Source: Myxococcota bacterium (GTDB lineage: Bacteria > Myxococcota_A > Bradymonadia > UBA7976 > UBA1532). From it: a stretch of 64,000 bases of DNA. Below the pieces are notes generated by a model. The model saw nothing but the letters and a program-made list of their open reading frames with translations, searched no databases and was not told the DNA's origin. Each line of letters starts with the position of its first letter. Within the stretch, counting starts at the first letter, position 1. Below are positions 26,565 to 56,476 of the stretch, in pieces. The stretch is taken from contig JAKLJY010000004.1 of the NCBI GenBank assembly GCA_023150895.1, forward strand, positions 43,605 to 107,604, written 5' to 3'. Both the position numbers and the translations under genes were made by a program.

Positions 26565-26620
26565 CGGGCGTACGGGCTCCCCGGTGGGCTGCGGGCGACG
26601 ACGAATCGGCAGATTACCGT

Positions 26621-34711: not shown

Positions 34712-37700
34712 TCAGCCAATCGCGAGCCCGAGGGCCTTGCGGAGCTTGAAGTAGTTCTCCGAGAGCCCGTACAGGACGAGTTCGCGGACGCGATCCTGCA
34801 CCGGTGCCTTGCTGAACTGACCGGGCTCATTCTTGATGCAACGAACGGCCGCGCCGAGGTCGTTGCTCAGGACGAATCCGAGTCGATTCGACGAGTGCTC
34901 GATCATCTCGAGCCACTTCGACAGGTTCAGGTGCTGCTGCTGGTTCTCGCTCATCTTGGCGATCAGCTTGCTGATCTCCTGGAGGTCCGCCGCCGGAATG
35001 CCGCGGAAGCTCTCGAGCAGGTCGTCGTCCTTGAACGGAACCTCGGCCGCCGGGTTCACGAGCTTCATCACCGTGTAGACGATGGTGAAGAGGCGTGCCT
35101 TGCGACGCTCGTACGTCGGATCGATGGTGGCCGTGTAGAAGTGCTGGCCCATCATCATCAGCTGTTTCGAGCAGATGAACGCCAGTTCCTGCATGGATCG
35201 ACCGCTGAGCACGTCGCCCCCGACCATCATCGCGGGCGGGTTGAGGTTCGCGGACAGAATCCCATTCCCCGCGTCGGGGATGCGGAAGACCTCGACGCGA
35301 TGCAGACGGGTGACCTGAGTGACGTAGTTCAGCACGTTGTTGAAGGGGGTCTGCTCGGTCGGTTCGACCACGTCCTTCTTCTTGTGCAGCTTGAGGTCCT
35401 TGTGCTGCTGCGCCATCAGCGGGACGGTGTACTGATACAGCCGCTGGAAGAACTGCGCGAGCAGCAGGCTGAGCTCGGGGTGGTAGATCAGGCCCCACTG
35501 CTCGTTGTCGAGGGGCTTGCGGGCCTGCGCCAGCGTCTTGGACCGGTACTTCTCGAAGAAGGCGCGCTCGTCGGCGTTGGCATGACCGAGGTACGAGAGG
35601 ACCTGGCAAACGCACCAAGCCTCATCGTAACGGCCGCTCTCCATGAAGAGGCGTCGGACCTGCTGGTAGCTCTCCACGTTGCGCGGGTTGAGCTCGATCA
35701 TCTTGTAGTGCTCGGCGATCGCCTTGTCGGGCTGCTCGTTGAGTTCGAACAGCTCTGCGACGATCGTGTGCACCTGCAGGTCTTCCGGCGACTTCGTCAG
35801 CGCGATCTTGTAGGCCTTGATGGCCTCATCGTACTTCTTCAGTCGCGTCCGGTTGATCTCGCCGAGACCCTTCGCCAGCGTGATGACCAGCTTGTCGTCG
35901 AGCTTGGACTCCATCGCCCGCTTGAGCATCTTGCGGTAGTAGCGGTCCTGCCGCTCGTAGTCCCGCTCGTTGGTCAGGATCTGGTCGATGGCCTGGAACG
36001 CCTTGAGCATCGCGGCGTCGGCGTCGAGCGCCTTGTCGAGCGTGCGGACGGCCAGGAAGTTGTCCTTCAGCTCGTCTCGCTGAATGACACCGATGGTGTA
36101 GTAGTACTTCGACTGCCGCGCGGGATCCCGCTCGAGCTCCGCGAGGCGCGTGAGGATCTCGACGGCTTCGTTCCACTGTCGGGCCTCCTGGTAGAGGTCG
36201 AGCAGCTTGCTCAGCACGAGGCGGCTGTCCGACTGGACCGTGAGGGCCTCTTTGTAGGCGTCGACGGCCTTCGGCACGTTGCGCAGGTGCTCGCGCAGGA
36301 TGTCGCCGATCGTCACGAGCGACTGGAATCGATCGTTGGCGTCGAGGTCCAGCGCCAGCAACTGCCGGCGGTGATGGATGACGTCCTCCCAGTCGCCCTG
36401 CTTCTCGTGGAGATCCACGACGGCGCGCAGCACGCCCTCGTTGCGGGGCTCGAGGTCCAGCGCCTTCTTGAAGAAGTCGAGCGCCTTGCGCCGTTCGCCG
36501 ACCTTCAGCTTGATCTGACCCTGTCGATAGAAGATCTCGACGACGTCCGCCTCGCTGAGGTTCTCGCGATGGTGGACGAGGATCGTCTGGTAGATCTTGA
36601 AGGCGCGGTCCCAGTCTTCGCGACGGAACAGCAGGTTGCCCATGCCCTGCAGGGTGGGCAGGTGGGTGCTGTCGAGCTCGTACGCGGCCTTGTAATGGGT
36701 CAGGGCCTTCTCGTCCTTGTGGAGCTGCTCCGCGACGAAACCGACCCGGTAGTTGAGCGTCTGCAGCTCTCGAACGTCGGCGCTGGTGTTCGTCTTGTGC
36801 TGGACGATCAGGTCGAGCAGAGGCTCAGCGCGCTCCCACCGACGATCCTCCCAGTACACCTCGACGAGCGGCACCGCCGCCTCGACGTTGTCGTGCATGT
36901 CCCGCGACTGCTCGTAGTAGTCGATGGCCGCGCCCCGATCGCCGAGGAACTTCTCGTAGACCTGACCAATCTCGAAGAGGCACTTCGCCTTCTCCGGGAA
37001 GCTCTTCGTCGCCGCCTCGATCATCTTGAGGGTCCGGACGACGTCGCCCCACTCCGCGCGCTGCTCGTGGACACCCTTGAGGGCCTGCAGGGCGGGGAGG
37101 TAGGCCGGATCGTGTTCGAGCGCGCTCTTGTACCAGCGCTCGGCCTGGTCCAGGTCGCCGACCTTCTCCTCGTAGACCTTGCCGACCCGGTACTGCCGAT
37201 CGAGGACCAGGGGGCGCTCGTTGAGCAGATGCGCTTCGCGGCTCAGCGCGTCGATGCAGTTGGGCCAGTCCTCGACCTGAGCGTAGAGCTCGCCGAGGGC
37301 GGTCAGCGTCGCGAGGTGGCGAGAATCGATCTCGAGGACGGGCGTGAGCGTCTCGATGGCCGCATAGGCATCCGCCAGCGGACCCCGGTAGAGCGCTGCA
37401 AGCTGCGTGTACGTCGCCACGCGCGCCCGATCGTCCGTCAGGGCCTCGAGGTGGAGCCGGTACACGTCCGCGAGGTCGTGCCAGAGGCCCGCATCGCGAT
37501 ACAAACGTTCCAGGGCCCGGACGGCCTGGACGTTGGCGGCGTCGACCATGAGCATCTTGCGATACGTGTCGATCGTCGACGTCCGGTCACCGAGCTCTTC
37601 CTCCTGGATGAGCGCGATGCGTGCATAGATCGCGAGCTGCTGGGTCGGCTCCGTCTTGACGTTGAGCATCATCTCGAAGACGTCGAGGAGATCGCGCCAA

Positions 37701-40700
37701 CGGTCCTGTCCCGTGTACAGCTTCTCGAGCGCGGTCATCGCGTCGAGGCAACGGTCGTCGACGGAGAGCGCCTGCCGGTATGCGTCGATGGCGCGCTCCG
37801 GATTCCCGAGGCGGCCTTCGTAGAGTTCACCGATGCGGAGGTGGTTTTCGACGATCTGTGCCGCGTCGTAGATCACCTGCGTCTGGCGAACCAGGACGTT
37901 GATGAGGTCCTGCCAGCGTTCGCGGACGGCATACAGGCGTTCGAGCGCCTGCAGCGTACCGAGTTCGGTGTCGTCAATCGCCTGAACCTGCCGCCAGGCG
38001 TCGATGGCGGCGTCGGGACGCTCGAGGCGCTCTTCGAGGATCCGGGCCATCCGCTCGAGCGCGGCCTTGCGCTCGTCGGGCTCCGTGGAGAGCTCGGCGC
38101 GACGCTGCAGCACCGTCACGACCTCGGGCCACTTGTTGTAGCGCTCGAGGAGATTCTGGAGCGCATCGAGGGCCTTGAGATTGTCGGGCTCGATGGCCAG
38201 AACGTACTGATAGTGCGTCCCGGCGTGCTCCGGCGTCTTCAGGTAGCGATCGTAGATGCCCGCGACCCGCAGATGCAGACCGACCGAGGCCGGGACGTGC
38301 CCCATCCCGTGCAGGACGTTCTCGTAGAGGTGGACGAGGTCGGACCACTTGTCCCCGAGCCCCGCAAGCCGCTCGAGATCCCCACCGAGACGTTCATCGT
38401 CCTTGATCTCTTCGAACGCGTTGGAAAGCACGAGGAACGCGTTGTCGACGCTGTCGAGACGGGTCTCGAAGACACCCGCCGTCCGCCGGTAGAGCTCCTC
38501 GCGGTCGAACGGATCCGTCGTCGTCTCGAGGCGCTGCAGCAGCAGGCCGACGAGCTCCTCCCACTGCATGTCGGCGGCGTACAACCGCTCGAGTTCCTGG
38601 GACGCGTCGAGGTTGGTCGGCTGCAGCTCGAGGATCTGAGCGTAGGCCCGCTTCGCGCCATCGGCCTCACCGATGCGCTTCTCCCACATCTCGGCGACGC
38701 TGAAGAGGATGCTGACCTTGTCGAACGCGTCGACGGTGATGTCGGCCTTGCGATCGAGGACCTCGACACACGCGCGCCAGTTCTCCGAAGCAGTGTGAAG
38801 CGCCTCGAGCGCATCGATGGCGTCTGCATCCTGGGGGGCGAGAGAGAGCACGCTCGACCACGCGCGGACGGCGTCCTCCGGGCTCTCGAGCGCGGTCTGG
38901 TAGAGTTCGCCGAGCTGACGGTAGAGGTCGACGCGCCGCGCGTCGCTCCCCGGCAGCAGGTCGAGCAGTCGGTGATCGGCGCGCGCGAGGTCGGCAAACT
39001 CCGCCGTGCGCTCGTGCAGGCCCCGAATGGCCCACAGGGCCGCTTCATGACCGGCGTCGCGGTCGAGGACCTTGTTCCAGTTCTCCAGGGCGTTGCGCTC
39101 GCGATCGAGGTAGTCGCCCCACACGCGACCGAGCTTCGAGAACAGCTCGATCTCGCGCTCGACACCGTTGTCCGGGAGGTTGACCTGACGGTCGCAGACG
39201 TCGACGAGCTCGCGCCAGCGCTCCTGCCCCTCGTAGAGGCCCTCGAGCGCGCGCAGTGCGGTCGGGTCCTCCCCTTCCAGATCGAGGACCTTGCTCCACA
39301 GATCGATGGCGTCGTCGGGACGCTGCAGCATCTGAGACGCGATGTCGGCCATCCGGGCGAAGAGGCGCGCCTTCTCCGCGTCGCGCTCGGCGACCTCGGA
39401 CTGCCGGTTCAGAACGTCGAAGAGCGGCTCCCACTCTTCCCGTGCCTGGTAGATCTGCTCGAGGCGGGCCAACGCACCGGCATGGTGCGGTTCCTGCTCC
39501 AGGATGCCCCGGTACTGTTCGACCGCGAGGTCGAGCTCGGTCAGCCACGTCTCGTAGACCTGTCCGAGCCGGTACATGAACGCGAGCAGCAGCGGCTCGT
39601 CGTAGGTGGCACCGATCTCCCGGCGCAGAACCTCGACGAGTTCCGCCCAGCGGTGCTGCTGCACGTACAGTTCGTCGAGACCGGTGAGCGCGGCGGCATC
39701 GACCGGGTCGATCTCCAGAATGTACCGGTACATCCGCTCGGCCGACTCGTCGTCCGAGAGCCGCGTGCGGTAAAGCACGGCCATCTCGTGCGCGAGGGAC
39801 TTCAGCAGCTCCGCGTCCTGCGTCCGGTGCATGCCCTCGGTGAACGTCCGGACGAGATCGCCGTAGCGTTCCGTCGCGGCCGCAAGCCGAGAGAGTTCCT
39901 TGCGGCCCGTCTCGTCCTCCGGCGTTTCCTTGAACGAGATCGCGTACCAGTCGAAGGCGCGCTCCGGCTCGGCGAGATGCTCGATGCAGAGTTCGGCGAG
40001 ACGGTGCAGGTGCCGCGTGCGGTCATCGCCCGGCTCTTTGAACGGAAGAAGCGCCTCGAGCACGCCGTGCAGGCGGATCCAGTCCTGGCGCTCCAGGTAC
40101 AGGGGCTCGAGGATCTCGCCGATCTGCGGGCGCTCGTGTCCCGCGTCGAAGAGGCGCACCAACGCGCCGACCGCGTCCGGTTGCTCCGCCTGCTCGACCA
40201 GCACGTCCTTGAACGTATTGATCGCCGTCGGGACGTCGTCGAGCGCCGTCTCGTAGAGGCTCCCCAGGCGGAGCAGCAGCGCGATCCGCTGCGGCACCTC
40301 CGTCGCCCCCTCGACCTCGACCCGGAGGATGTCGGCCAGATCGGCCCACATGCCCTCCTTCTGATAGAGGCGGTCGAGGGCGAGGATCGCCCCCTGATGG
40401 TCGGGCTCGACCTCGCGGACGCGGCGATAGCGCTCCACGGCATCGACGTTCGACCCGAGCTCTTCCTCGTAGATCCGGGCCACCCGGAGATACAGGTCGC
40501 GAGCAATGGCGTCCGTCTGCACGTGGCCGAGGAGCTGCTCGATCAGACCGGCGAGCCGGTCGAAAGCCCCGGAGGTCCGTGCGACGCGCTCGAGCGCGGC
40601 AAAGGCCTCGAGGTGAGCGCCATCCTCTTTCACCGCTTCCGCATAGGCATCGAACGCCTGATCGGAGTCGGCGAGCATGTCCTCGAACGCTGCGCCCACC

Positions 40701-43700
40701 TGCAGATGGAGCGCGGTCCGGGCGTCCACCTCCGAGGTGACCTCGAGCAGTGAGCGCCAGCCGGCGATCAGGCGATCCCAGGCCCCGGCCTTCTCCAGAA
40801 CGGGCTGGAGGACCGCCATCGCGGCCACCGACTCGCGGTCCGTGCGAATGAGTCCTTCGAGCGCCTGCAGGCTCGGCTCGTGCCCCGGCCACTGGGCCAG
40901 AATGTCGCGATACCCTTCGATGGCGGTCGGGACCTGCTCGAGCGCCGTCTCGTACAGGTTCGCGATCCGGAAGTGCAGCGCGACCTGCGCTTCGGGCTCG
41001 CTGACCACGGCGACTTCGCGAACGAGAATGCCGCGCAGCTCTTCCCACTTCTCGAGGCGGTGATAGAGGCTGTCGAGGCACTGCAGGGCCGTGAGGTCCT
41101 GCGCGTCCCAGCCGAGGACCGTCTGGTACGTCTCGACGGCCCGGGTCAGGTCGTCGAGTTCGCGGTCGTACGCCGCGCCGATGACGTAGTAGATGTCCTT
41201 CCGGGCTGCCAGGTCCTCGGTGAGTTCGGCCTTGCGGTGCAGGATCTCGAGCAGGTCCTCCCAGCGCGCGAGCGACAGGAAGATGCGCTCCAGAGCATCG
41301 AGCGCTTTGGCATCGACCGCATCGACCTCCAGGACGGCCCGGTAGATCTCCACCGCGCGGTGCGGATCGCTGAGCATCTCCTCGAAGATGGCGCTGACCC
41401 GGAAGAGGAGATCCTTCTTCGGGAACGCCTCCTCCGTCAGCTCGGCCTTCCGCAACAGGACAGCGACGAGTTCGTTCCACTGTTCCGTCTGGAAGTAGAT
41501 GTCCTCGAGGGCGGCAATGCACTCGAGGTCGGTGTCTTCCGCGGCGTAGGCGGCCTCGTAGTGGCGCCGTGCGCCGGCAAGGTCCCGCAGGTTCCCCAGT
41601 TGTACACGCGCAACACGCTTGTGAATATCGGTCGCGACCGCCGGCTCGGAGATGTCGTCGACGAGCCCTTCGTAGACCGCGACGAGCTCGCCCCAGATCT
41701 CCAGCGCCTCCGCAATCCGGGTCAGCTCCGCCAGCGTCCGGCCGTTGCCGGGCTCGACCGCGAAGGCCCGGGCATAGCTGCGGAACGCCTCGTCCGGTGC
41801 GCCGCCCCGGTTCTGATGGAGCTCGGCGATCCGATGGAGCAACTCCACCTGCCGCTCGGCGGTGTCGGCGTGCTCACGCTGGATCTCGTAGACACCGACC
41901 AGCTTCTCCCAATCGTCGCGGCCCCGGTAGATGGGCTCGAGAATGTCGGCGATCGTCGCCTGATACTCGGGCTCTCCCAGCAGCCGTTCGAGCGCCCCGA
42001 GGGCATCGGCGTTGTCCGGCGTCTGCGTCACCACCGTCCGATAGGTCTCGATGGCCTGCGCCGCGTTCCCGAGTTCGCCCTCCTGCAAGGCACCGAGGCG
42101 GACCTGCAGGCTGATCTTCTCGGCGTCGTCGGTCGCGAGGGCCAGCTGGCGTTCGATGACCTCGCCGAGCTCGGTGAACTGGCCGAGTGCCCCGTACAGA
42201 CGATCGAGTGCTCGGAGGGCCCGGACGTTGTGCTCGTCGGCCTCGAGGATCTCGCGGTACGTAACGATGGCCTCGTTCGGATCCTCGAGCATCTCCTCGA
42301 GGAGTTGACCGATCTGGAACTGCAGCGCTTCGCGGACGTCCGGGAGCTCCGTCAGCTCGAGCTTGCGCCGATAGATCGCGAGCAGCTCCGGCCACATCTG
42401 GGCCCGGGCGTACAGGCGTTCGAGGCTCTCGATCGACGTTCGGTTGTCCGCCTCGAGATTGAGCACCCGGGTGTGCGCATCGATGGCTCGGGGCACGTCG
42501 CCGAGCCGCTCCTCGTAGACGACGGCCAGGCGGGCGAGCAGTGCCCGGGCGAGCGCGTCGTCCTTCGCGTCGGGAGTGACCTCTTCGAGCAGCGCGGCGA
42601 AATCCTGGAACTTCTGACCGACCTCGGCGAGCTCCGAGAGCCGGCCCACCGCGACGTGACTCGACGGCACCTCGCGAAGAGCGCGAGCGAATGCGTCGAA
42701 CGCTCGGTCCACGTCCGCCGTCCGCGCGGTGTGCAAGGCACCAATCCGCTCGAGGAGCTCGAAGCGCTTGACGGTCTCCGCCGTGTCCTCGAGCTCGATT
42801 TCGAGCACTCGGACGAGGGCCTCCCATTCACCCTGATCGTGGTAGATCGGCTCGAGGATCTTGGCGACCGGACCGCGGAACTCGGGGTCGATCAACAAGC
42901 CTTCGAGGGCGCTGCGCGCCTCGGCGTGTGTCGGGTTGGCCTCGAGAATGTCCCGGAACGCACCGATGGCATCGGCCGTGCGACCGAGCGCGTGCAGCTC
43001 GATGAACCCGAGCTGAAGCTTGAGGGGCAGCGGGTCCCCTTCACCGGTCACGGCGATGAGCTGCAGTTCCCGCTGCAGGACGTCATGGAGTTCCTCGAAA
43101 CGCTCGCCCTGCTGGAAGAGGCGGTGCAGCGCCGCAAGGGCGTCACGGTCGCCCTCGTCCTCGGCGACGATCGCTCGGTACTTCTCGACGGCAGAGTCCG
43201 CGTCGTCGAGTTGCTCTTCGAAGATGACCCCCTGCTTTCGCAGCAGGGCCTTGCGCGCCTCGATCCCATCCGCGAGAGCGAGCTTGCGATCGATGACGCC
43301 GAGCAGGTCATGCCAGCTCGCGAGCCGGGTATACAGGCCCTCGACCGCGTCGAGCGCCACGAGATTCTCGGGTTCGATCGAAAGGGCGTCGTGGTAGCGG
43401 GCGAGCGCGTCGTGCGTCTGCCCCATGTTCTGATCGAGAATCCGGGCCAACGCCAGCGTGATGTGCAGCTGAGCGGCGGTATCACCGGCGGCGTTCGCGA
43501 GCGCCGAGACGAGGTCGTCGTGGACGGTGGACCACTGGTGCGTCAGTCCGCCGAGGCGTTCGAGCTCGCCCTGCACCTCGACGTCCGTCGGGTGTTCCTG
43601 GAGGGCGCGTCGAACCCACTCGAACGCGGAATCGGGATTGCGAAGGTGCTGCTCGTAGATGCGCGCGCTGCGCATCATCAGCTGGCGTCGCTCCGTCGGG

Positions 43701-46423: not shown

Positions 46424-46579
46424 CAAAGTCGCCTTTTTCCGGACGTCGCTGGATGGTCGTGGCGCTGCCACGATGATCGAATGAACCTGCACCGTTCGCC
46501 CGCCCCCGGGGGCCGAGCGCGACTCTTATAGCATCGGGCGCCCGGGCCGACAACGACCACGGGCCGGCCGGCGCGGGAC

Positions 46580-47452
46580 TCAGGGCGCCGACGGAGGCGT
46601 CGGGTTCTCTGCCCTGTATTCCAGCTTGGCGATCGTCTCTTCGGCCGTGCGAACCCGGAGGGGTTCCTCGTCGTTGGCACGTCGGGCCAGGAAGAGACGG
46701 AGGTGGTGGATCGCCTGCTCCGCGTTGTCGTTCTCGAAGTAGGCGATGCCGAGGTTGAACAGCGCGTTCGTGAACGTGGGCTTCAGCTTGATGGCCGCCT
46801 GGAACGCTGCAATCGCGTCGTCGTAGCGTTGCTGGTTCTTGTAGATGACGGCCAGGTCGTGATGAAGCTCCGGAAACTCCGGATTGTTCTCAATGCCGTT
46901 CTTGAAGACCTGAATCGCCTGCGCGTACTTCTCGAACCGCGCGTACAGGTTGCCGAGCGCCTGGTACGGCTGGCCGAAGCGGGGCTTCAGCTTGATGGCC
47001 TGGATGAACTCCTCCTGGGCCCGGTCGAACTGCGCCTGGTTCTGAAGCGCGACGCCGAGTTCGAAGTGGCTCTCTCCCATGGCCGGGTTCTTCTCGATGG
47101 CCTTGCTGAACGCGTTGATGGCCTGCGGCCAGCGCTTGAGACGACCGTGAACCTTCCCGAGGTGGTAGTGGTACTGGGCCACTTCGGGATTCAGCTCGAT
47201 CGCTTTCTCGAAGTCGCGAACCGCCTCTTCGGGCTGGGAGGCCCGTTCAGCCCGGAGCAACCCGCGCTGGTAGAATGCGGCGTCGTTCGTCGGGTCGATC
47301 GTGACCGCCTCGTTGAACTGCACGATGGCGCCGGCAGTGTCACCCGCCTTGAAAGTCCGAACCGCCTCGTTCACCAGCTTGTCGGACTTGTTGCGCTCCA
47401 GATTGCAGCCGAGCGCAACGACCGCGCACGTGGCGATCCACCATCGCTTCAT
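46580..47452 (-). CDS. TPR-repeat lipoprotein (occupies the gltH position of a G1-like cluster)
   Basis: Start at MKRWWIATCAVVALGCN (lipobox). About 7 canonical TPRs (..AFYQRGLLRAERASQPEEAVRDFEKAIELNP..). Confidence 0.7.
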   Translation of the reverse strand: MKRWWIATCAVVALGCNLERNKSDKLVNEAVRTFKAGDTAGAIVQFNEAVTIDPTNDAAFYQRGLLRAERASQPEEAVRDFEKAIELNPEVAQYHYHLGKVHGRLKRWPQAINAFSKAIEKNPAMGESHFELGVALQNQAQFDRAQEEFIQAIKLKPRFGQPYQALGNLYARFEKYAQAIQVFKNGIENNPEFPELHHDLAVIYKNQQRYDDAIAAFQAAIKLKPTFTNALFNLGIAYFENDNAEQAIHHLRLFLARRANDEEPLRVRTAEETIAKLEYRAENPTPPSAP

Positions 47453-47925
47453 CGACGACCTCCGACCTTCGGGCATTCGCCGGTTCTGGTAACAGAGGGG
47501 ATCGCTCAGGTCAAGCGAGGGGTGCGGGCGACCGGCGTTTCGAGTCGGAAGCCCCGCTTCCATGTTCTGCAAGGTGACTGGCGACCGAATCGTCTACCGA
47601 CGCTCGCGCCGGAAACCTGTCGCCCCGGCGGCCGCCAGCGCTTGCCGCGCGCATCGGACGCGCGCATCCGGTCGGTCGTCCCCCCCTCCGTCGCGCGCCG
47701 TTGCGAACGGAATGACGCTCGCTCGACCGTTGCAGGCGCACCGCCGTCGTCTCGACGCCAGTTGGGCGGCGGTTGTGGCGAAACGCCCCGCGCGGCGGGC
47801 CGCGGCCGGGGCGAAACAGCCACTGGACTGAAGACGGGAGCGCGAAACCGGTGGGATCGAGGGAACGACCGTGCGCCAGAAACAGGCGCGACGTCAGCCT
47901 GTGAAGGGAGCGGGAGACCGGAGGA

Positions 47926-49746
47926 CTAGTTCGAGGCCTTGAACACGAACGGGTATTTGACGGTCACGATGCCGCCGCCCTTCGGCTCCGGAAAGACCCA
48001 GCGCTTGATCTTGTCGACGAGGCAGCTCTCGACGTCGCGGTCTCCCATGGTCGACTCTTCGATGACGGCCGCAATCACGCTGCCATTGCCCGAAATGGTG
48101 AACTTGACCGTGACCTTGCCGGCAAGGTCGCGCTTCACGTTGAGCTGCTTCTCGTAGCAGTACTTGTACTCCGCCGCATGCTGACGAATGATCCGACGGA
48201 TGGTCTCCATGTCGAGCGCGCCGCTGACGATGGGCTTGCCGGGGATGACCTGCGGGATCTTGCCGGAGCGTTCCCCGTAGCGCGACACTCCGCGGCCGTA
48301 ACCCGAGCCGCCTTCGCCACCCCCGCGTCCCATCGTGCCGATGTTCCCGACACCGATGGAGGAATCGCTGAAGCCGCCGCCGCCACGACCGGCACCGGCA
48401 ACGCCGAGTCCGCCGTAACCAGCCGCTTCACCCGTACGGTCGCCGAACATGTTGCCGAGCGCGCTGACGGCGTCCTCGCCGAGCGCCCGCTCCTGCGTGC
48501 CCCACACCGCGCTCAGCTCGCCCTCGAGCTGGTTGAAGGCAGCATTGGCCGTGTTGAGGGCCTCCATCTTGGCGCGTTCCTTGGCAAGCTGGATCTTCTC
48601 GGTGTCGGGCGGACCTTTGATCGCGAACCGCTGGTTCTTCTGATCGGAGTCCTTCTTGCCCATCTTGCCTTCTTCGTCACGCGCCTTGGCGGCTGCCTCG
48701 CCCTCATCCTCCTTGAGGCCCTTGAAGAGGTCCTCGATCTTGTCTTCTTTCTCGGTCTCCGGCTTGAGCATGAACTCGACGTAGCGCTCCTGCACGTCGA
48801 AGGCGTCGAGTTCGAGCCGCTCTGCGTCTTCCGGGACGGAAAGGATGATGGCTGCGAAGAGCGCATGAAGCGCCGCCGCCGCAAGGAAGTAGCGGCCGAA
48901 GTGTCCGTCGAACGAGGAGAAGATGCCGACCGGCGGCAGCGGACGGACCGCCGCGACATGATTCACGAGGAACGTGGCGCCACCGAAGTGGAGGCGCGCG
49001 CGGGCCTTCGGCGGGAGTCGCAGCGCGTGGCTCCGGGTCACGCTGCTGCTCTTCCCCAGCTTGCCGGCGGCCTTCAACTCGTCGAGCGAGTACACCTGCC
49101 CGTCGAGCATGACGTCGCCCTGCACGCTTTCGGGCACGTTCACGACCATGTCCGCGCCGTTGGTCGAAGCGAGGGGGTACGGGTCTTCCGGTACGAGGTC
49201 ACCCCGGACGAAGTGATTCACCTCGTTCGCCTGACCGATCGTATAGGTGCCCTGCTCACGCAGATGGCTGATGTCGACCACGGCGTCGCCGAACATCGCG
49301 ACGACCTCGAGTGCGCGGCCGCCGTCCGAATCCGACTCGTCTTCCTCGAACGTCGGCGCGCGGCGCGCGACCTCCTGGGGACGAACGATGGCCGTCGCCA
49401 TCGCATTGACGTCCGGTCGTGCCGAGGCAGCGCTCTGGCCCGAGATCGTCACGACGATGCGGTGTCGGCCGAGCGTCAACGCGTCTCCGCTCCGGAGCCG
49501 CTGCTTGGTCACCGGTTGCCCGTTGACCAGCGTGCCTTTGGTGCTCCCGAGGTCGAGCACGACAACGTCGTCCGCACTGCCGACCTCGATGACGGCGTGC
49601 ATGCGCGAGACGTCGTCATCGTCGATCCGAAGGTGCGACGACGAGAGCTTTCCGATCTTGATCGTCGGCTCGGCGAGCACCTCGGTTCGCACGAGGCGAT
49701 CACCGTCGTAGATCTCGAACTGAATGGGAACTTTGGGCGTGTCCAT
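47926..49746 (-). CDS. FHA-domain / single-TM / Gly-rich / TonB-C-like protein (GltG/PglI(AgmV)-like)
   Basis: N-terminal FHA (..IGKLSSSHLRIDDDDVSRMHAVIEV...LDLGSTKGTLVNGQPV..). TM helix (YFLAAAALHALFAAIILSV). Gly-rich linker. C-terminal TonB_C-like fold (..GKVTVKFTISGNGSVIAAVIEEST..VKYPFVFK). Confidence 0.8.
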   Translation of the reverse strand: MDTPKVPIQFEIYDGDRLVRTEVLAEPTIKIGKLSSSHLRIDDDDVSRMHAVIEVGSADDVVVLDLGSTKGTLVNGQPVTKQRLRSGDALTLGRHRIVVTISGQSAASARPDVNAMATAIVRPQEVARRAPTFEEDESDSDGGRALEVVAMFGDAVVDISHLREQGTYTIGQANEVNHFVRGDLVPEDPYPLASTNGADMVVNVPESVQGDVMLDGQVYSLDELKAAGKLGKSSSVTRSHALRLPPKARARLHFGGATFLVNHVAAVRPLPPVGIFSSFDGHFGRYFLAAAALHALFAAIILSVPEDAERLELDAFDVQERYVEFMLKPETEKEDKIEDLFKGLKEDEGEAAAKARDEEGKMGKKDSDQKNQRFAIKGPPDTEKIQLAKERAKMEALNTANAAFNQLEGELSAVWGTQERALGEDAVSALGNMFGDRTGEAAGYGGLGVAGAGRGGGGFSDSSIGVGNIGTMGRGGGEGGSGYGRGVSRYGERSGKIPQVIPGKPIVSGALDMETIRRIIRQHAAEYKYCYEKQLNVKRDLAGKVTVKFTISGNGSVIAAVIEESTMGDRDVESCLVDKIKRWVFPEPKGGGIVTVKYPFVFKASN

Positions 49747-49754
49747 GGGCTCTC

Positions 49755-50039
49755 TCAGATGTCCTCGGCCGACTTGAGCATCTCCGGCACGAAAGATTCG
49801 CGAATGCGAATCAAACTGCTGTGCCGGGCCGCGCGGCGCGCGTCCAGGTATTCACCTTCAGGGCGGATGAACGAACCTTCCACCACGTCGTCCTCGAAGT
49901 CGTAGACGGTCTCCTTCTTGTAGACGACACCGGGATCATTCGGATCCTGGACCACGTCGTCTCCGGCCGCCTGGGCCATTGCCGAGGCCGGCGCGACGGC
50001 GACGATGGAGAGAAGAAGGACCACGAACTTCGAGCGCAT
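49755..50039 (-). CDS. small secreted protein, 94 aa (GltF-like position)
   Basis: Start at MRSKFVVLLLSIVAVAPASAMA with a strong SD (AAGGAG 6 nt upstream). Begins 8 nt upstream of the FHA gene start. Confidence 0.5.
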   Translation of the reverse strand: MRSKFVVLLLSIVAVAPASAMAQAAGDDVVQDPNDPGVVYKKETVYDFEDDVVEGSFIRPEGEYLDARRAARHSSLIRIRESFVPEMLKSAEDI

Positions 50040-50155
50040 GCAGAACTCCTTTCGGACGGCGGACACGCCGGCCGAGATGATAGCCGCGTTTGACGGAGGT
50101 GGAAAGCTCGCTCAACGGGTGAGACACGGGCCCGAGAGCGAAGTTCCCGAGAAAA

Positions 50156-51418
50156 TCACGGCTGGACGTTTTCCGGGGGCGCCGCGGAGGGAGGCGCGGC
50201 TGCGGCATCCCGCTTCTCCTGCTCGGCCTGCTGCCGCATCATCTCCTCCGCCTCCTTGAGGTTCTGGAGTTGAATCTGCGCCTGCTTGATGCGCTCGGAA
50301 GCGTCCTTGCGGAGTTCGGCGTTGCTCCCCTCGTACCGCAGCGCGTTCTCGTAGGACTTCATGGCATCGGGGAGCTTCTGCTGAAACTCCTGCTGCAGAA
50401 CACCGAGATTGAACCACGCAGCACCGTTCTTCTCGTCGGCGGCGATGACGGCCCGGTAGCCGCGCTCGGCCTCTTCGTAGTTCCCCATGCCGCGCGCGGC
50501 GACGGCTCGAGAGAGAAGCGCCTGCGTATTCTTCGGTTCGACCTGCGTCACCGTGTCGAAAGAACGGAAGCTCCGTTCGTAGTCCTTGTAGCTGAACGTA
50601 ATGGACCCGATGTTCATCAGGCTCGGCACATACTTGGGATCGGCTTCCACGGCCTTTTCGAACGAGGCCATCGCCTTCGTCACATCGGCCATGCGCAGGT
50701 GAACGAGGCCGAGGAGATTGTGCACCGCCGCGTTCTTCTCGGAGATGTTCAGCGCCTGAACGCAAACGAGTTTCGCGAGCTCGTACTTGCCCATGTCGAA
50801 ATAGGTCCACGCGAGAACGACATAGGCGTCGACGTTCTGGCTGTCTTCCTTCAAGGCCGTCCGCACGCGCTTGACCGCATCCGGATAGTCCCGACGGTTC
50901 TTCGACGACATCGCGAGATTCAGGTGTGCGTACCCGTTCAGAGGTTCGACCTGAATGGCCTGTTGGTAGGCCGCCTCGGCCTCCCCTCGCCGGCCCTCGG
51001 CCTGATACATCGCGGCCAGATTGACCAGGCCGTCCCCATTCTTGGGGTCCTTCTCCTGGACCTTCTTGTACCAGTCGCGAGCCTCGTCCTTCTTCCCCTG
51101 CGCCTCGGCGACGACGCCGAGGTTGAAGTAGCCGGCCCCGAACTTCTCATCCTCGCCGACGGCGTCCTTCAGCGCATTCTCGGCTGCCGCGAGGTTGCCG
51201 CTCCGGTAGGCATTGGACGCGTCGCGGAAGTTCTCCACGGCGGCTCGTTTGACCTTGGGCTTGGGTGCCGACTCCTCGGTGCCGTCGGCGTTGGGGCCAC
51301 CCGGTGCCTCCTCATCGGAGGGCGCGGTCGGTTTGGGAGCGCTGCCGCCGCAAGCGGAGAGCAGAAGAGTGGCGAACGCCGGCATCCAAGCGGCGCGCAA
51401 TGACCGGCGGACCATCAC
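50156..51418 (-). CDS. TPR-repeat lipoprotein (GltE/AglT-like)
   Basis: GTG-ATG start overlapping the upstream stop (GTGATG). Lipobox LLSAC. About 8 TPRs. Lys/Asn-rich. Confidence 0.75.
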   Translation of the reverse strand: MMVRRSLRAAWMPAFATLLLSACGGSAPKPTAPSDEEAPGGPNADGTEESAPKPKVKRAAVENFRDASNAYRSGNLAAAENALKDAVGEDEKFGAGYFNLGVVAEAQGKKDEARDWYKKVQEKDPKNGDGLVNLAAMYQAEGRRGEAEAAYQQAIQVEPLNGYAHLNLAMSSKNRRDYPDAVKRVRTALKEDSQNVDAYVVLAWTYFDMGKYELAKLVCVQALNISEKNAAVHNLLGLVHLRMADVTKAMASFEKAVEADPKYVPSLMNIGSITFSYKDYERSFRSFDTVTQVEPKNTQALLSRAVAARGMGNYEEAERGYRAVIAADEKNGAAWFNLGVLQQEFQQKLPDAMKSYENALRYEGSNAELRKDASERIKQAQIQLQNLKEAEEMMRQQAEQEKRDAAAAPPSAAPPENVQP

Positions 51419-54400
51419 TGCTCCTCCTGAACGTGCAGATCGGTGATGTACGGCTGTCGGAACGTGGCGTCACCGAAGTGCTCGGGCTTCGCGCGGACCT
51501 CACCGTCGTAGCGGTACTCCTTGGGACTCAGGCGAGCGAGCTCTTTCGCCGCCTTGTCCGAGTACTCGTTGAACCAGCGCAGCTCCTGTGCCTTCTTGAC
51601 TGCCGTGACGTAGGCTTCGATGGCCTTGGCCTCGACCGGCTGCGCACGCTCTGCCATCGACCCCTTATAGGTCTCCACCTGCTCCTCGTTGAAGGAGCCC
51701 GGCGCCGGCGCGTCGTAGATGTCGTTGGCGAGCTGCTGGAACATCTCGCCGATGCGAGTCAGCGCAGCGATCGCCCAGTTGGCGGAGCGGAACTCGATGA
51801 CCTCGAGGTAGACCGCGCGAGCGGAGGCGATCAGCTCCGACTTCTTGACGATGACCTTGGTCATCTCCTCGATGAACTTCTTCACGTTCTGGTACGGGTG
51901 AATCTTCAGTTTCACCGCGTCGAACTCCCGTCGGATGGCTTCGCCCATCTGGAATCGGGCTTCCGCGACCGCCGTCAGTCCGGTCGTCAGGTCCTTCTTC
52001 TCGGCATCGCCGAGCTTCGTGAAGGCGGCGTACGAGGTTGCGTAGGCCTTCTGCGCGTTCGTGACGTCCTTCTTCTTCTCGTAGGCGTTTCCGATGTGGA
52101 CGTAGGCCTCGAGGGTGAGGTCGATCTTGCCGGCCTTCCCGTGCTTGCGCAGGTACTCATTGAAGTGGCGAATCACGTCGTCCCACTTCTCCTGCTTCTT
52201 GTACGTGAGACCCATCGAGAAGAAGACCTCTGCCGCCTCGTCGGGCTTCGACCCGATGAGCTTCATGTACGCGACGGAGTCGGCGAGCGCCTGATCGTAG
52301 TCTCCGAGGCCCTGTCGGAAGACGGCGGCGTTGCGCAGCGCGTCGCGGGCGTTCTCCTCCTTCGGGAACTTCTCGGCGTAGGCCTCGTAGATCTTCGCCG
52401 CCTGGCTGTAGATCGCAAGTGCGTGCAGGTTGCCCGCGATCTGGAAGAGCGCCTTCGGGACGAGTTCGCTCTGCGGCACCTCGTTGACGATCTTGAGCTT
52501 CATCTCGATCGACTGCTCGAGCATCTTCTCGCGCTCGTAGTTCAGAGCAGCGTTGTAGAACGCCTTGTCGACGAACTCCGAGGTCGGGTAGTTGGCGGCG
52601 TACTGCTTGAAGCACGTTGCGGCCTTCACGTACTCCTTCGTTCGCTCGATGCCCTGGCACTTCTTGAAGGAGCTCTGCTGCTTGAGCTTCAGGAGCAGCG
52701 CGTAGAACTCCGGGTCCCGTTGCGCGGTGTAGATCTTCAGGAAGATGTCCACCTGCTTCTCGAGGGTGACCATGTCGCCCGTGATGTTGTAGGCGTCGAG
52801 GAGCAGATTGGCGGCAAAGACCGCGAGTCGGTGCTCGGGGTGCTTCTCGGAGATGCTCTTGAAGCGAGGCATGGCCTCGTTGAATTGATTGAAGTCGTAG
52901 TAGATGCGGGCCGCGTCGTACTCGATGTCGACGAGGTATTCGCTCTCTTTCACGAACTTCGAGTAGATGTCGCACGCCTTGATGAACTTGACGTGGCTCT
53001 CGGGCAGGGGCTTCGGGGGCGGCACGCCGCCGTCACCCTTCGACTCGACGTTGGCGACATCGCCCGTGCCCTGGTCCTGCTTGATGTCGATGAGCTTCTT
53101 GTACGAGAGGACCTGCCCCTGGGCGGCATCGGGGGTGAACTCGCCATCCGCCTTGATGTTCAGCGTCGCTTCGTAGGCCTTGGCGGCCTCGAGCCACTTC
53201 TGGCCAGCGTAGGCCAGTTCGGCGAAGTAGAACTGGATCGTGTAGATGTTCGGCCCTTGGGGGAACACCTCGATGTAGTCCTTATAGAGTTCGTACGAGA
53301 TCGCGTAGTCGTCGTTGTTCTTGGTCTTCGTCCACTGGATGTGCATCTGGACCGAGAGCGACCGGACGAGCTCTTCAATCTTCTCGCCGTCGGCGGCGAC
53401 CTTCTTCGGGTCGGCGTCTTTGGCTTCACGGACCTTGCGCCACAGGTCGACGAGGCGCTTGACCTCGCGCACGATCTCGGTCGCGTCGCGGCTCATGTTC
53501 CGCGTGTTGAAGGCGACCTGCATCTCGTAGTGCACGACCTTGTAGCTGTTGGGAGACTGTGCGATCAGGTCGCGATAGAGCCGGTTCGACTTCTCGAACT
53601 GACCGGTCAGCGAGTAGAGGTCGGCGAGGTTCTCGGCGAGGGTCAGGTAGTCGTCCGGGGCCGCTTTGCGGAAAAACGGGATGGCCTGATTCGGGTTGGC
53701 GTCCTCGATGTTGACGTAGGCGCGGACGAGGTCGCGGAGTGCTTCCTTCTTGAGCGAGAGCCGGTTCGGGGACGGCCGGCCGGTTTGCTCGTTGGTGAAC
53801 TTGACCACCATCAGGAACTGCGCGAGCGCCTGCTTGTAGTCGGCGATGTTCATGAAACACCAGCCGAGCTTGTAGAGCGCGTAGCCGTAGGTCTGAGCGT
53901 CTTTGTAGTTGGTGACGACCTTCTGGTAGGCCTTGAGCGCCTGCTCGACCTCGCCCGCGTCGAAATAGATCTCACCGATGTTCGTCAACGTGTCCGCGAC
54001 GTGCGGGGACTTCGGGTAGCGCTTGATGAGCTCGATGTAGATCTTCTTGGCCTTCTCGGGCTCCTGCTTCTGCTGGTAGTTGTAGCCGAGGGCGAAGAGC
54101 ACACCGTCGAGGCGGGGGTACTGCGGGAAGTTCTTGACGATGTCGACGTAGACCTTGATCGCGTCGTCCCGGTACTTCTGAGAAGACTGCAGGAGCTTGT
54201 CCCGCTCGACCTCGCAACCCTTCTCGGCGCCCTTGTTGCCGCCCGCCTTCTTCAGGCACTCCCCTTCGCGGTCATACGCCCGGATGAAGAGGTCCGAGGA
54301 CCGCTGCCAGTACATCTCGGAAAGGCGGTCATAGAGGTCGGGCTTCGCCGGGTCGTTGTCGGGCGTCGAGGCGATGAGCTTCCGCAGCAGTTCGAGCGCC

Positions 54401-54651
54401 TCGCGGAACTTGTCCTCCGACTGAGCCTCGGCGGACTTCCGGCTCCGGGCCTGCTCCATGTTCATGCGGGGGCCCTTCTTCTCGGCCTCCGCTTTCTTCT
54501 TCGGGTCGACCTGACCGAGGTCGGCCTGACCCTGGGCCTTGATCTCCACCTGGCGCTTGCTGCCCTGGGCCCAGGCGCTCGAAGCGCCGCACAGGAGGGA
54601 CAGGGCCAGGGCGCCGCGCAGCGCGAGGCTCTTGCACGTCATCGACCGCAC
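51415..54651 (-). CDS. large secreted TPR-repeat protein, about 1075 aa (GltD/AgmU-like)
   Basis: Sec signal (..LSLLCGASSAWA/QG). TPR and helical repeats throughout. Lys/Tyr-rich. Likely ATG at 54642 overlapping the upstream stop (ATGA); the track start is GTG 54651. Confidence 0.8.
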   Translation of the reverse strand: MRSMTCKSLALRGALALSLLCGASSAWAQGSKRQVEIKAQGQADLGQVDPKKKAEAEKKGPRMNMEQARSRKSAEAQSEDKFREALELLRKLIASTPDNDPAKPDLYDRLSEMYWQRSSDLFIRAYDREGECLKKAGGNKGAEKGCEVERDKLLQSSQKYRDDAIKVYVDIVKNFPQYPRLDGVLFALGYNYQQKQEPEKAKKIYIELIKRYPKSPHVADTLTNIGEIYFDAGEVEQALKAYQKVVTNYKDAQTYGYALYKLGWCFMNIADYKQALAQFLMVVKFTNEQTGRPSPNRLSLKKEALRDLVRAYVNIEDANPNQAIPFFRKAAPDDYLTLAENLADLYSLTGQFEKSNRLYRDLIAQSPNSYKVVHYEMQVAFNTRNMSRDATEIVREVKRLVDLWRKVREAKDADPKKVAADGEKIEELVRSLSVQMHIQWTKTKNNDDYAISYELYKDYIEVFPQGPNIYTIQFYFAELAYAGQKWLEAAKAYEATLNIKADGEFTPDAAQGQVLSYKKLIDIKQDQGTGDVANVESKGDGGVPPPKPLPESHVKFIKACDIYSKFVKESEYLVDIEYDAARIYYDFNQFNEAMPRFKSISEKHPEHRLAVFAANLLLDAYNITGDMVTLEKQVDIFLKIYTAQRDPEFYALLLKLKQQSSFKKCQGIERTKEYVKAATCFKQYAANYPTSEFVDKAFYNAALNYEREKMLEQSIEMKLKIVNEVPQSELVPKALFQIAGNLHALAIYSQAAKIYEAYAEKFPKEENARDALRNAAVFRQGLGDYDQALADSVAYMKLIGSKPDEAAEVFFSMGLTYKKQEKWDDVIRHFNEYLRKHGKAGKIDLTLEAYVHIGNAYEKKKDVTNAQKAYATSYAAFTKLGDAEKKDLTTGLTAVAEARFQMGEAIRREFDAVKLKIHPYQNVKKFIEEMTKVIVKKSELIASARAVYLEVIEFRSANWAIAALTRIGEMFQQLANDIYDAPAPGSFNEEQVETYKGSMAERAQPVEAKAIEAYVTAVKKAQELRWFNEYSDKAAKELARLSPKEYRYDGEVRAKPEHFGDATFRQPYITDLHVQEEQ

Positions 54652-56204
54652 TCCGACTTGATGGTGTACAGGTAGTAGCCGAGTTCGTCGCGCCAGTACT
54701 CACCCGTGAAGGGCCAGTAGATGTGCTCGTCGTCCGTCGCGTAGAGCGGCCCCTTCTGGGTCGAGCGATTCTCGAATCCGGCGCCTTGCAGGCGGTTCTC
54801 GAGGACGCCCTTCTCGGCCGACGCCACCTCGAACTCGATCTTCAACGACTGGCTGATGAGGTCCCCGAGTTCGTCGACGACGCGCTTGAGGCGCGACTTG
54901 GCGAGCGCCCCGGCCTCGTGCTCGGCGAGCGACTTGATGACCTCGATCTCCTGGATGATGAGCTTCGCGAGCTCGCTCTGCGCCCAGCTGGACTTCGAAC
55001 GACGAATGAGATCCACCTCGCGATCGAGCTCCCGGACATAAGCGGCGATTCGCTTCAACTGCTGGTCCTGGAAGGCCGCGTTCAGGATCTGCTGTACGCG
55101 GGCGGACATGGACTTCCCCTCGGACTGCAAACGGCTGAGGAAGCCGTAGAGCTCCGCCGGGTCCGAGTAGTTCTCGAGGTAACCCTTGATCTCGTCGCGC
55201 AGCGGCTCGTAGGTCAGCCGGAACTCGTTGATGGCGTCCCGCGTCTTCGAATAGTTGCAGTTCGAGTAGAAGATCACGGACGTCAGAATCCCTGCCTCCG
55301 GGTAGTACTCGTCACCGAAGAACGGGGAGTTCAGGGTGTGGAGATTGCCGAGGGCCTTCTCGTGGTTGTTGAGCCGGAAGAACGCCCAGCTCGCCTCGAA
55401 GAGCCCGTCGAGCCAGAGGACGCTGTCGAGGGGCACCTGGTCGTAGTACTTCACGGCCTGGCGGAACTGCCCCGTGCTGTAGAACACGCGCGCCATGCTC
55501 AGGATGGCGAGCTGATTGAAGTACTTGAGGTCTTCGCTGGGGTTGTCGCTGCTCGCCGTCGCCTTGAGGAGGTCCTTGAAGGCCTCGACGGCCGGTTTCG
55601 GCTGCTCGAGCCGGACATACGCGATGCCCTGGAGAAACTTCGCTTTCGGGAAGTAGCGGCTCTCCGGGGTCACCAGGGTCAGCGCCTGGAGCGCCTGTTC
55701 CATCGCGCCCTTCTTGTAATGGAACTGACCGAGCAGGTAGGCCATCTCGGCCCGGAACTCGGTCGGGCAGTCTTCCGCCTTGTATTTGGCGATCTTCTCG
55801 AGCAGCCCGGGGTCACCGGAGAGTTTGCGCGAGAGGTAGTAGAGCCACTTGCACGTCGCCTTGAAGTAGCGGTGTTCCGGTCCCGCCTGGACGACGTGGT
55901 CGAAGAAATTGAGCGAGGCCTGATAGAGGCCGAGCCGGTAGAGCGTCTTGCCGAGCGTGTACTCGGCCTTCTGCTCGACCGGCGTCACGGCGACCTCGTT
56001 GCGCGCAACGATGCGATGGAGGATCAGGCTCGCCCGAAGCCAATCCCGCTTCTTGTAAGCGGCGAGGGCTTCATCGAGTTCGCCGGCGGACTCCTTGTCG
56101 CCCTCCACGCTGACCGGCGCGAAGTCCATGTCGTCGGCGCCGAAGGCCGGCAGCGAAGAAAGGAGCACCAGTGAGAAGGCCAGCAAAGGCAAACGCACGC
56201 GCAT
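54639..56204 (-). CDS. secreted TPR-like protein, 521 aa, first gene of the operon
   Basis: ATG 56204 preceded by GGAGGA. Sec signal (..LPAFG/ADD). TPR-like helical repeats and a C-terminal coiled-coil-like region. Confidence 0.7.
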   Translation of the reverse strand: MRVRLPLLAFSLVLLSSLPAFGADDMDFAPVSVEGDKESAGELDEALAAYKKRDWLRASLILHRIVARNEVAVTPVEQKAEYTLGKTLYRLGLYQASLNFFDHVVQAGPEHRYFKATCKWLYYLSRKLSGDPGLLEKIAKYKAEDCPTEFRAEMAYLLGQFHYKKGAMEQALQALTLVTPESRYFPKAKFLQGIAYVRLEQPKPAVEAFKDLLKATASSDNPSEDLKYFNQLAILSMARVFYSTGQFRQAVKYYDQVPLDSVLWLDGLFEASWAFFRLNNHEKALGNLHTLNSPFFGDEYYPEAGILTSVIFYSNCNYSKTRDAINEFRLTYEPLRDEIKGYLENYSDPAELYGFLSRLQSEGKSMSARVQQILNAAFQDQQLKRIAAYVRELDREVDLIRRSKSSWAQSELAKLIIQEIEVIKSLAEHEAGALAKSRLKRVVDELGDLISQSLKIEFEVASAEKGVLENRLQGAGFENRSTQKGPLYATDDEHIYWPFTGEYWRDELGYYLYTIKSECGR

Positions 56205-56476
56205 GCAGTTCCTCCGAATCCCGTTCCGCAGACGCCGGGCGCACCACCGCGGGCGGGCGGCGACCGGGCGTCGATCATCGACGGGTTATAAAGGCGGCCC
56301 CAAGCGAAAGCAAAGGAAATCCCGGACGGTGGACGGGCCCCGGCCCCCCCGCGACCCGTCGGCGTCACGGGCGGAAATGCGGTACCGCTGGACTCAACGT
56401 GATTGACTTCGGGAGAATGGCCAATACGATTGCCGTGCTCTCGAACAGAACCATCCGCGACTTTCCCCGAGGCGAC

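Follow-up and report, generated by a model that had tools for sequence, protein, structure and literature searches.

The window analysed here, a 64,000-nucleotide stretch of contig JAKLJY010000004.1 from an uncultured Myxococcota bacterium, carries seven co-directional open reading frames (ORFs) on its minus strand between positions 34712 and 56204, all of them with the coding signature typical of the genome (g1 to g7, Table 1). An initial annotation, made from the sequence alone, had read these genes as a gliding-motility cluster of the Agl-Glt type described in Myxococcus xanthus, in a high-GC lineage. The number, strand and sizes of the genes given there agreed with the ORFs, with the coding signature and with independent gene calls, since public contigs encoding a protein identical to the 606-aa product list proteins of 521, 1075, 419, 94, 606 and 290 aa followed by a giant one. 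The proposed architectures, comprising signal peptides, lipoboxes, a protein with FHA, transmembrane (TM) and TonB_C segments and a giant tetratricopeptide repeat (TPR) protein, were recovered with Pfam and NCBIfam models and topology signals. The high GC content was evident both in the window as a whole (about 70%) and at the third codon positions (GC3) of the seven genes, which ranged from 0.83 to 0.91, with 0.35-0.43 at the second positions (GC2).

Table 1. Features of the glt-like cluster in the window. Coordinates of g1 to g7 were taken from the likely ATG starts.
Feature	Position	Strand	Description
g1, gltC-like	54639..56204	-	521 aa, secreted TPR protein
g2, gltD-like	51415..54642	-	1075 aa, secreted TPR/YbgF-repeat protein
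g3, gltE-like	50156..51415	-	419 aa, TPR lipoprotein
g4, gltF (cglF)-like	49755..50039	-	94 aa, secreted
g5, gltG-like	47926..49746	-	606 aa; FHA, TM helix, TonB_C-like AgmX/PglI tail
g5/g6 non-coding gap	47453..47925		473 nt
g6, 'T'	46580..47452	-	290 aa, TPR lipoprotein
g7, gltI (agmK)-like	34712..46423	-	3903 aa, predicted cytoplasmic TPR solenoid
Intergenic region 5' of g1, up to a divergent small ORF	56205..56416		212 nt, no ORF

In M. xanthus, the gliding machinery is encoded by the G1 cluster gltD-E-F-G-H-I-J (MXAN_4870-4862), the G2 cluster gltK-B-A-C (MXAN_2538-2541) and the M1 cluster aglRQS (PMC3169522). Comparators for the window were obtained by searching g5 against 1.84 billion cluster representatives; by way of representative P0288 (1041 bits with the GltG model), 79 loci were fetched from genome assemblies. 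Locus L015, from Myxococcus sp. Y35, was used as a verified canonical G1 locus, with scores above the respective cut-offs for the GltE (745 bits), CglF (144 bits), GltG (1095 bits) and CglE/GltH (176 bits) models; NCBIfam has neither a GltD nor a GltI model. The best matches in the window of Y35 GltD, GltE, GltF, GltG and GltI were g2, g3, g4, g5 and g7, respectively (E 1e-103, 1e-38, 1e-16, 3e-60 and 5e-91), and the same pattern was obtained across about 70 Myxococcaceae and Archangiaceae loci. Among the curated hidden Markov models (HMMs), GltC, GltE, CglF/GltF and GltG were the best or the only specific family for g1, g3, g4 and g5. The similarity check proposed in the initial annotation, run here against Myxococcus sp. 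Y35, thus paired the 1075-, 419-, 606- and 3903-aa products with the counterparts it had named (AgmU/GltD, AglT/GltE, PglI/GltG and AgmK/GltI), and the homology of the 94-aa protein to GltF held as well.

The first gene had been described as an extra one and a local oddity, a view that has to be abandoned because its product is related to GltC, a core component. The g1 protein, which starts with a signal peptide, matched NF033756 (gliding_GltC) with E 5.5e-125 and 418.5 bits (cut-off 450), its residues 18-519 aligning to model positions 96-619 of 622. The gltC gene of M. xanthus, counted among the seven core (Group B) genes, is located apart from G1, in the G2 cluster (PMC3169522). The g1 protein was 69% and 62% identical to its counterparts in L007 and L008, two relatives of the window locus, and 32-41% identical to those in metagenome loci, and it had no match in any of the Myxococcaceae G1 loci examined. 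The g2 product, also with a signal peptide, was 27.8% identical to Y35 GltD over 1128 aa (blastp, E 1.5e-98), and in the reverse tblastn search g2 was the best window match of Y35 GltD (353 bits); canonical GltD and g2 matched the same YbgF, CpoB and BamD models (TIGR02795, 133 bits for g2). The g3 lipoprotein (lipobox LLLSAC) matched NF033758 (gliding_GltE) over model positions 4-395 of 411 (E 5.6e-46, 157 bits, cut-off 225) and was 28.6% identical to Y35 GltE over 371 aa (blastp, E 7e-38). Similarly, g4 encodes a protein with a signal peptide that covered positions 4-88 of the 88 in NF033764 (gliding_CglF; E 1.1e-25, 89.5 bits, cut-off 90) and shared 41% identity with Y35 GltF over 87 aa (E 1e-21). 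Its best-conserved stretch was the C-terminal half, with the motif DFEDD..EG...P.GEY..AR....HS.LIRIRE.F, and contacts with GltG and GltC are predicted for that half of GltF (PMC11761067).

In the g5 protein, an N-terminal FHA domain (Pfam, E 1e-15) is followed by a single TM helix (283-306), a Gly/Glu/Lys-rich linker and a TonB_C-like C-terminal domain, so ordered that the FHA domain is predicted to be cytoplasmic and the linker and C-terminal domain periplasmic. It scored 403 bits with NF033760 (gliding_GltG, cut-off 650), 113.8 bits with NF033768 (AgmX/PglI, cut-off 40) over its tail and 34.9 bits with TIGR01352 (tonB_Cterm, cut-off 27.1), and Y35 GltG was 32.6% identical to it over 672 aa (E 3e-60). 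As judged from these matches, membership of g5 in the GltG family is established, and the status of a strict equivalog is not reached.

The product of g7 is made of TPR throughout and has neither a signal peptide nor a TM helix. A profile of 16 Myxococcaceae GltI N-termini gave it 853 bits, the highest value for any of 100 large TPR proteins, as against 166 bits for the other giant TPR protein of the window, and left g2, g3 and g6 unmatched. In blastp and tblastn comparisons with Y35 GltI, which as a Myxococcus comparator comprised the N-terminal 2459 aa only, identity was about 25% over 1800-2200 aa (E 1e-72 to 5e-91). Self-comparison revealed about ten super-repeats of some 306 aa, roughly from residue 450 to 3400, with self-match offsets of 305-308, 610, 1116 and 1421 at 30-35% identity; Y35 GltI had self-repeat offsets of 306-307, 605-608 and 913. 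The giant at 4772-13306, taken as a control, showed a period of 72/145 residues, and the super-repeat of about 306 aa was not present in it. Moreover, g7 aligned collinearly, in a single alignment, with the giants that metagenome loci carry after C-D-E-F-G(T) (34-37% identity over 2300-2990 aa) and with that of L007 (55% identity). Because of the shared super-repeat, the place directly downstream of gltG, the size and the cytoplasmic prediction, we accept g7 as a putative member of the GltI family, with residue-level orthology not fixed. A homologue search with the N-terminal 1500 aa of g7 returned only proteins of up to 2625 aa and did not recover g7 itself, the database seemingly being without giants. 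Of the two best matches, one comes from a locus truncated by the end of its contig (L005) and the other from L006, discussed below.

Located at a distance of 21 kb from the cluster, the second giant just mentioned (minus strand, 2844 aa) is not GltI-like. Kinship between the two giants of the window was considered and rejected, as they gave only out-of-register matches at 22-23% identity (97 bits) and differ in repeat period.

The remaining gene, g6, encodes a TPR lipoprotein at the gltH position, as the initial annotation had noted, although by homology it is not a substitute for GltH but a representative of a conserved family, here called T. Apart from its lipobox (VVALGC), only generic TPR matches were found in its sequence, with no match to GltH/CglE. 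Its matches in Myxococcaceae loci were only of TPR level (about 50 bits, to GltE), and no counterpart was present in about 70 Myxococcaceae and Archangiaceae G1 loci. Homologues located between gltG and the giant gene were found, however, in L007 (47% identity), L088 (56%), L105, L136, L141 and the L137/L145 group (27-35%), all of them with a signal peptide and a Cys at the lipobox position. The motif C-N-x-x-R-x-x-S was shared by g6 and five of the six lineages checked, the L137/L145 group having PAC-DAFVC instead. Judging from these homologues, g6 represents a separate, conserved constituent of the cluster, present in at least five environmental lineages, and is not GltH by homology. Two other identities were rejected: a GltE duplicate, as the similarity stayed at TPR level (50-65 bits), and Tgl, with 86 bits against a cut-off of 225.

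The 473-nt gap between g5 and g6 corresponds in position to an additional gene of the Bradymonadia-labelled relative L007 (12018-13478), which lies between gltG and T and encodes a 486-aa GltG paralogue without an FHA domain. That paralogue is 38% identical to g5 and scored 212 bits with the GltG model and 112 bits with the AgmX/PglI tail model; with no Zn-ribbon or GYF-like N-terminus, it is not GltJ as far as its sequence tells. A second G-like gene was also found in L098. The gap itself contained no remnant of the L007 paralogue (best tblastn E 0.17), so a decayed gltJ or gltH in it was likewise rejected, and no terminator-like site was found in it on the minus strand.

The gene junctions only partly agreed with the translational coupling proposed for the cluster. 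Those cited in its favour are real, g2 starting within an ATGA that overlaps the stop of g1 by 4 nt, g2 and g3 meeting in a GTGATG and g4 and g5 being 8 nt apart, but the other three of the six junctions are loose (g3/g4, 116 nt; g5/g6, 473 nt; g6/g7, 156 nt). This restricts plausible coupling to g1-g3 and g4-g5, half of the junctions, and falls short of establishing one operon. The region 56205..56416 likely contains the promoter of the cluster, although its sole consensus match was one promoter-like site (9/12) on the plus strand at 56403-56430. The 116-nt gap contained one weak promoter-like match; overall, a promoter and terminator scan of the gaps gave nothing better than shuffled sequence, and no Rfam family was matched anywhere in the window. 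The cluster has a lower GC content (0.61-0.68 over window positions 34000-56000) than its flanks (0.69-0.76). This dip sits in GC2 and not in GC3, which equals that of the flanks, and it reflects the Lys/Glu/Ala-rich composition of the TPR proteins, not a foreign origin. Recent horizontal transfer was thus rejected as its source: with a codon usage (GC3) matching that of the flanks, the cluster is native and not recently acquired.

Conservation of the layout was examined by scanning Joint Genome Institute (JGI) metagenome contigs with a five-sequence GltG alignment and mapping the resulting loci by tblastn. Among the 25 loci with at least 8 kb upstream, 24 had C-D-E-F before G. A giant gene followed downstream in 22 loci and T was present in 16 loci, with GltH found in none of the loci mapped. 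Many of these loci are closely related, so that they represent perhaps five or six independent lineages. The same-strand order C-D-E-F-G-T-I was identical in the window, L088 and about 20 metagenome loci, and L007 carries C-D-E-F-G, the 486-aa GltG paralogue, T and a 3997-aa giant. The initial annotation had viewed the layout as a local departure from the canonical one; the order of these approximately 20 environmental loci and of genes sce2914-2921 of Sorangium cellulosum (discussed below) makes the supposed local differences the ordinary layout. By this comparison, the arrangement of the window is the usual one outside the Myxococcaceae and Archangiaceae and not a local oddity. Taken together, the homologies support the initial interpretation with three corrections: the first gene is gltC-like, T is not GltH and the layout is typical.

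As for the lineage, the GltG of the window matched, at 100% identity, a protein labelled 'Myxococcota bacterium', and its nearest labelled relatives (50-61% identity) come from metagenome-assembled genomes (MAGs) named Bradymonadia. The window relatives L007 and L008, which in RplS and TrmD reach only 62-70% identity to the window, share with it the synteny rimM-trmD-rplS-rnhB-yraN-(small divergent ORF)-gltC-D-E-F-G. yraN (UPF0102) was found 1-1.5 kb upstream of gltC in the window, L007, L008 and 19 metagenome loci (L095, L099, L102, L121, L136, L137 and L145-L164, about 0.5-2 kb from the locus start), in most loci on the strand opposite to the cluster, and its adjacency in those 19 metagenome loci suggests that the chromosomal site is old. 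In the window, the genes immediately upstream of g1 are a small Cys-rich lipoprotein gene and yraN, and rsmI lies downstream of g7.

Two neighbours on the upstream side deserve a mention. The Cys-rich putative lipoprotein (56417-56983, plus strand, 188 aa, lipobox GTLAC), divergent from gltC, has counterparts of 38-40% identity at the same place in L007 and L008 and none in the more distant C-D-E-F-G-T-I loci. Where the rplS-rnhB-yraN run of L007 and L008 has RNase HII (220-225 aa), the window has a 399-aa ORF (57372-58574, minus strand) with no Pfam or NCBIfam match and no similarity to RNase HII; two independent public assemblies (L001 and L002) also contain this ORF, at 94-100% identity.

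We conclude that the region is probably a Glt-family cluster, gltC-gltD-gltE-gltF-gltG-T-gltI, encoding, by analogy, the inner-membrane, periplasmic and cytoplasmic modules of an envelope-spanning force transducer of the Agl-Glt type. In such a machine, an inner-membrane-anchored GltG would be driven by an AglRQS proton motor, TolQR-like and encoded elsewhere, and its cytoplasmic FHA domain would dock on the repeated modules of the GltI scaffold. In the periplasm, the TonB_C-like domain of GltG would bind GltD, which GltE would join, and GltF would bridge GltG and GltC, the latter linking this relay to an outer-membrane GltA/B(H,K)-CglB platform encoded elsewhere; T would probably be an additional envelope component. 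In the M. xanthus model, the FHA domain docks on GltI at repeated sites, GltC and GltG are bridged by GltF, and the connection to the outer membrane is made by GltC (PMC11761067). The modules of about 306 aa in g7 are the obvious candidates for such repeated FHA-binding sites.

Gliding is the most likely output of the cluster for three reasons. First, the 'Group A' genes, which set the motility machine apart from a widespread core complex, include GltF and GltI (PMC3169522); second, no GltI is recorded for the paralogous Nfs, G4 and G5 systems; and third, cultured Bradymonadales have been reported to glide (PMC7188933). The assignment to gliding keeps a provisional character because GltH, GltJ and GltK, all three essential for gliding in M. 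xanthus (PMC3169522), were not seen here.

Other observations also weigh against the reading as a gliding cluster. The four whole-protein Glt HMM scores all fall below the NCBI equivalog cut-offs, which is expected for a distant lineage but would also suit co-orthology to Glt, Nfs and other paralogues in place of orthology to the gliding copies. Alignments of g7 with GltI occurred in several registers, as the super-repeat explains, and the domain matches of the profile were not collinear; the first 430 residues or so of g7 were unmatched by that profile. A giant related to g7 also occurs away from glt genes, in L006, and L008, in spite of sharing the synteny, has C-D-E-F-G with neither T nor a giant gene nearby. 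Finally, scanning the window ORFs with Pfam and NCBIfam yielded no AglRQS, GltA/B/K/H, GltJ, CglB, MglA/B or AglZ, and there was no MotA/ExbB, ExbD/TolR or small-GTPase match within the window. Neither the window nor any C-D-E-F-G-T-I locus yielded a match to Y35 GltH (176 bits to NF033755). Regarding GltJ/AgmX, the initial annotation had correctly noted the lack of gltJ in the cluster: within the window, the AgmX/PglI tail domain is confined to g5, NF033761 matched only that shared tail (18 bits), and g7 is followed by rsmI. The absence of motor and regulator genes has parallels, as aglRQS and MglA-type genes are unlinked to the glt cluster in Myxococcus, Sorangium and Haliangium (PMC3169522), and the outer-membrane platform genes for GltA, GltB, GltK and CglB are unlinked in M. 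xanthus too.

The window also contains, at 25185-26573 (minus strand), an ORF of about 460 aa with a signal-peptide-like start and no Pfam family, ending in ...GLGGQF. Its C-terminal Phe is as in outer-membrane beta-barrels, and it is larger than GltA/B (250-275 aa).

The only serious rival explanation is that of a Glt-like paralogous machine with a non-motility output, using the same kind of motor without producing gliding, as Nfs, G4 and G5 do. M. xanthus has these three further clusters of C/D/E/F/G type, and their mutation leaves motility unaffected (PMC3169522). The sub-cut-off HMM scores, the absence of GltH, GltJ and GltK from the cluster and the reduced C-D-E-F-G set of L008 would all suit such a paralogue. 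Nevertheless, Nfs has no GltI and no GltI homologue is listed for G4 or G5 (PMC3169522, Table S3), whereas the present cluster has, linked to it and conserved, a GltI-type giant with the super-repeat; nfsA/B and nfsH, which sit in the Nfs cluster, have no equivalents here, and the layout equals that of the Sorangium cluster assigned to G1/G2 homologues (PMC3169522). On balance, we regard a non-motility paralogue as unlikely, if worth keeping in mind.

Far less probable is an ancestral 'core complex' of GltC/D/E/G and AglRQS, devoid of a motility role, as occurs in numerous non-gliding Proteobacteria and in Fibrobacter. The non-motor genes of Group B are precisely GltC, D, E and G, and gltC and gltD are linked as in core-complex operons. 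Yet the organisms with that complex have aglRQS in the same operon, along with an extra gene without a homologue in Myxococcales or Bdellovibrionales (PMC3169522), while the window has no MotA/ExbB or ExbD/TolR gene and does have the Group A genes gltF and gltI. A coincidental likeness of common TPR, FHA and TonB_C domains, with no system behind it, could draw on the fact that four of the seven products are TPR proteins that cross-match widely and on the sliding g7-GltI registers, but this reading is refuted by family-specific, full-length HMM matches (E 1e-25 to 1e-125), by reciprocal best matches for five genes, by a gene order kept between genomes as divergent in RplS and TrmD as those above and in about 20 further loci, and by the far lower scores of the TPR-only controls (166 versus 853 bits for the other giant; 50 bits for g6 versus GltE).

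The cluster extends the Sorangium-type arrangement to an uncultured Myxococcota lineage of very high GC content, whose nearest labelled relatives are Bradymonadia MAGs. Within the literature searched, we found no paper describing the gliding genes of the Bradymonadales, which are predatory bacteria. In environmental Myxococcota, linked gltC and gltD, a missing gltH and a TPR lipoprotein ahead of gltI constitute the common arrangement, which helps in selecting a minimal natural variant of the machine for study. More tentatively, and with odds that we place below even, the contiguous gltC-D-E-F-G-T-I beside yraN may represent the ancestral condition of the gliding machine, T being a conserved, unnamed component in most Myxococcota outside the Myxococcaceae and Archangiaceae. 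It would then follow, and with the same reserve, that the machine in these lineages needs no GltH and, in this genome, apparently no GltJ encoded in the cluster, GltJ being the MglA-controlled assembly switch of M. xanthus. If so, the machine of the model organism would be derived and rearranged, and a simpler natural variant would exist.

For annotation, the practical consequence is that the NCBI equivalog cut-offs miss all these proteins and a pipeline would withhold Glt names from them. In the opposite sense, the GltG equivalog model may name a paralogue GltG. Stand-alone GltG-like genes with no gltD/E/F/H/I nearby occur in Myxococcaceae and Archangiaceae (L031, L044, L048, L050, L055, L058 and L062; 50-83% identical to P0288), and the closest match (83%) of P0288, itself far above the cut-off of that model (1041 versus 650 bits), is one of these stand-alone copies. 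Separately, locus L025 (BNCN01000006.1), titled 'Comamonas sp. KCTC 72670', holds a complete Myxococcus-type G1 locus, with a GltG 74% identical to P0288 and a GltD scoring 2420 bits against that of Myxococcus sp. Y35; this assembly looks mislabelled or contaminated.

Elsewhere in the window, three flanking genes may have signalling functions. They encode a PilZ-domain protein of the myxobacterial TIGR02266 family (1485-1895, minus strand), a 1117-aa protein with an MshEN (cyclic di-GMP-binding) domain (18665-22018, plus strand) and a sigma-54-dependent response regulator (26621-28258, minus strand).

Compared with known systems, the cluster resembles Tol-Pal and TonB-ExbBD in the TonB_C-type end of GltG, in the YbgF/CpoB-type TPR repeats of GltD and in the presumed TolQR-like motor, but it lacks TolQ/R, ExbB/D, TolA/B and Pal and has, as Glt-specific features, an FHA domain, a giant cytoplasmic scaffold and GltC/E/F. 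With the core complex of Gammaproteobacteria, Geobacter and Fibrobacter (an aglRQS-gltCDEG operon) it shares the linkage of GltC to GltD/E/G, unlike that complex having no motor genes in the cluster and possessing GltF and GltI. Nfs, the sporulation machine of M. xanthus that moves spore-coat polymer (nfsA-H, MXAN_3371-3378), is closer, since Nfs, G4 and G5 share with the window a contiguous C-D-E-F-G block (nfsC-G) with a homologous FHA/TonB_C protein, TPR proteins and a small secreted protein. In Nfs, however, the block is preceded by the barrels NfsA/B and followed by NfsH, with GltI missing, whereas the window cluster has a GltI-type giant and neither barrels nor H. The likeness to the M. 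xanthus Agl-Glt machinery consists of homologues of GltC/D/E/F/G/I with the same predicted topologies, the D-E-F-G...I order and the super-repeat of about 306 aa. It differs from it in that gltC stands at the front of the cluster and not in G2, that GltH (CglE) and GltJ are missing and that T lies between gltG and gltI; identities to M. xanthus-type proteins are only 25-41%, and all HMM scores are under the equivalog cut-offs. G1 and G2 homologues are also grouped in Anaeromyxobacter (PMC3169522).

The closest parallel is found in Sorangium cellulosum So ce56, where sce2914, 2915, 2916, 2917, 2918 and 2920/2921 correspond to GltC, D, E, F, G and I (PMC3169522, Table S3). This comparison rests on published assignments and lengths (Luciano et al. 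2011, PLoS Genet 7:e1002268). The order is that of the window, with the unassigned sce2919 at the slot of g6, and the lengths in Sorangium and in the window are 568 and 521 aa for GltC, 1289 and 1075 aa for GltD, 497 and 419 aa for GltE, 90 and 94 aa for GltF, 681 and 606 aa for GltG, and 1774+2081 and 3903 aa for GltI. In both, aglRQS is unlinked to the glt cluster. What separates them is the lineage, the window belonging to an uncultured member of the Myxococcota with Bradymonadia-labelled relatives. The region is thus no new kind of system but a known one, a Sorangium-type, GltI-containing Glt cluster.

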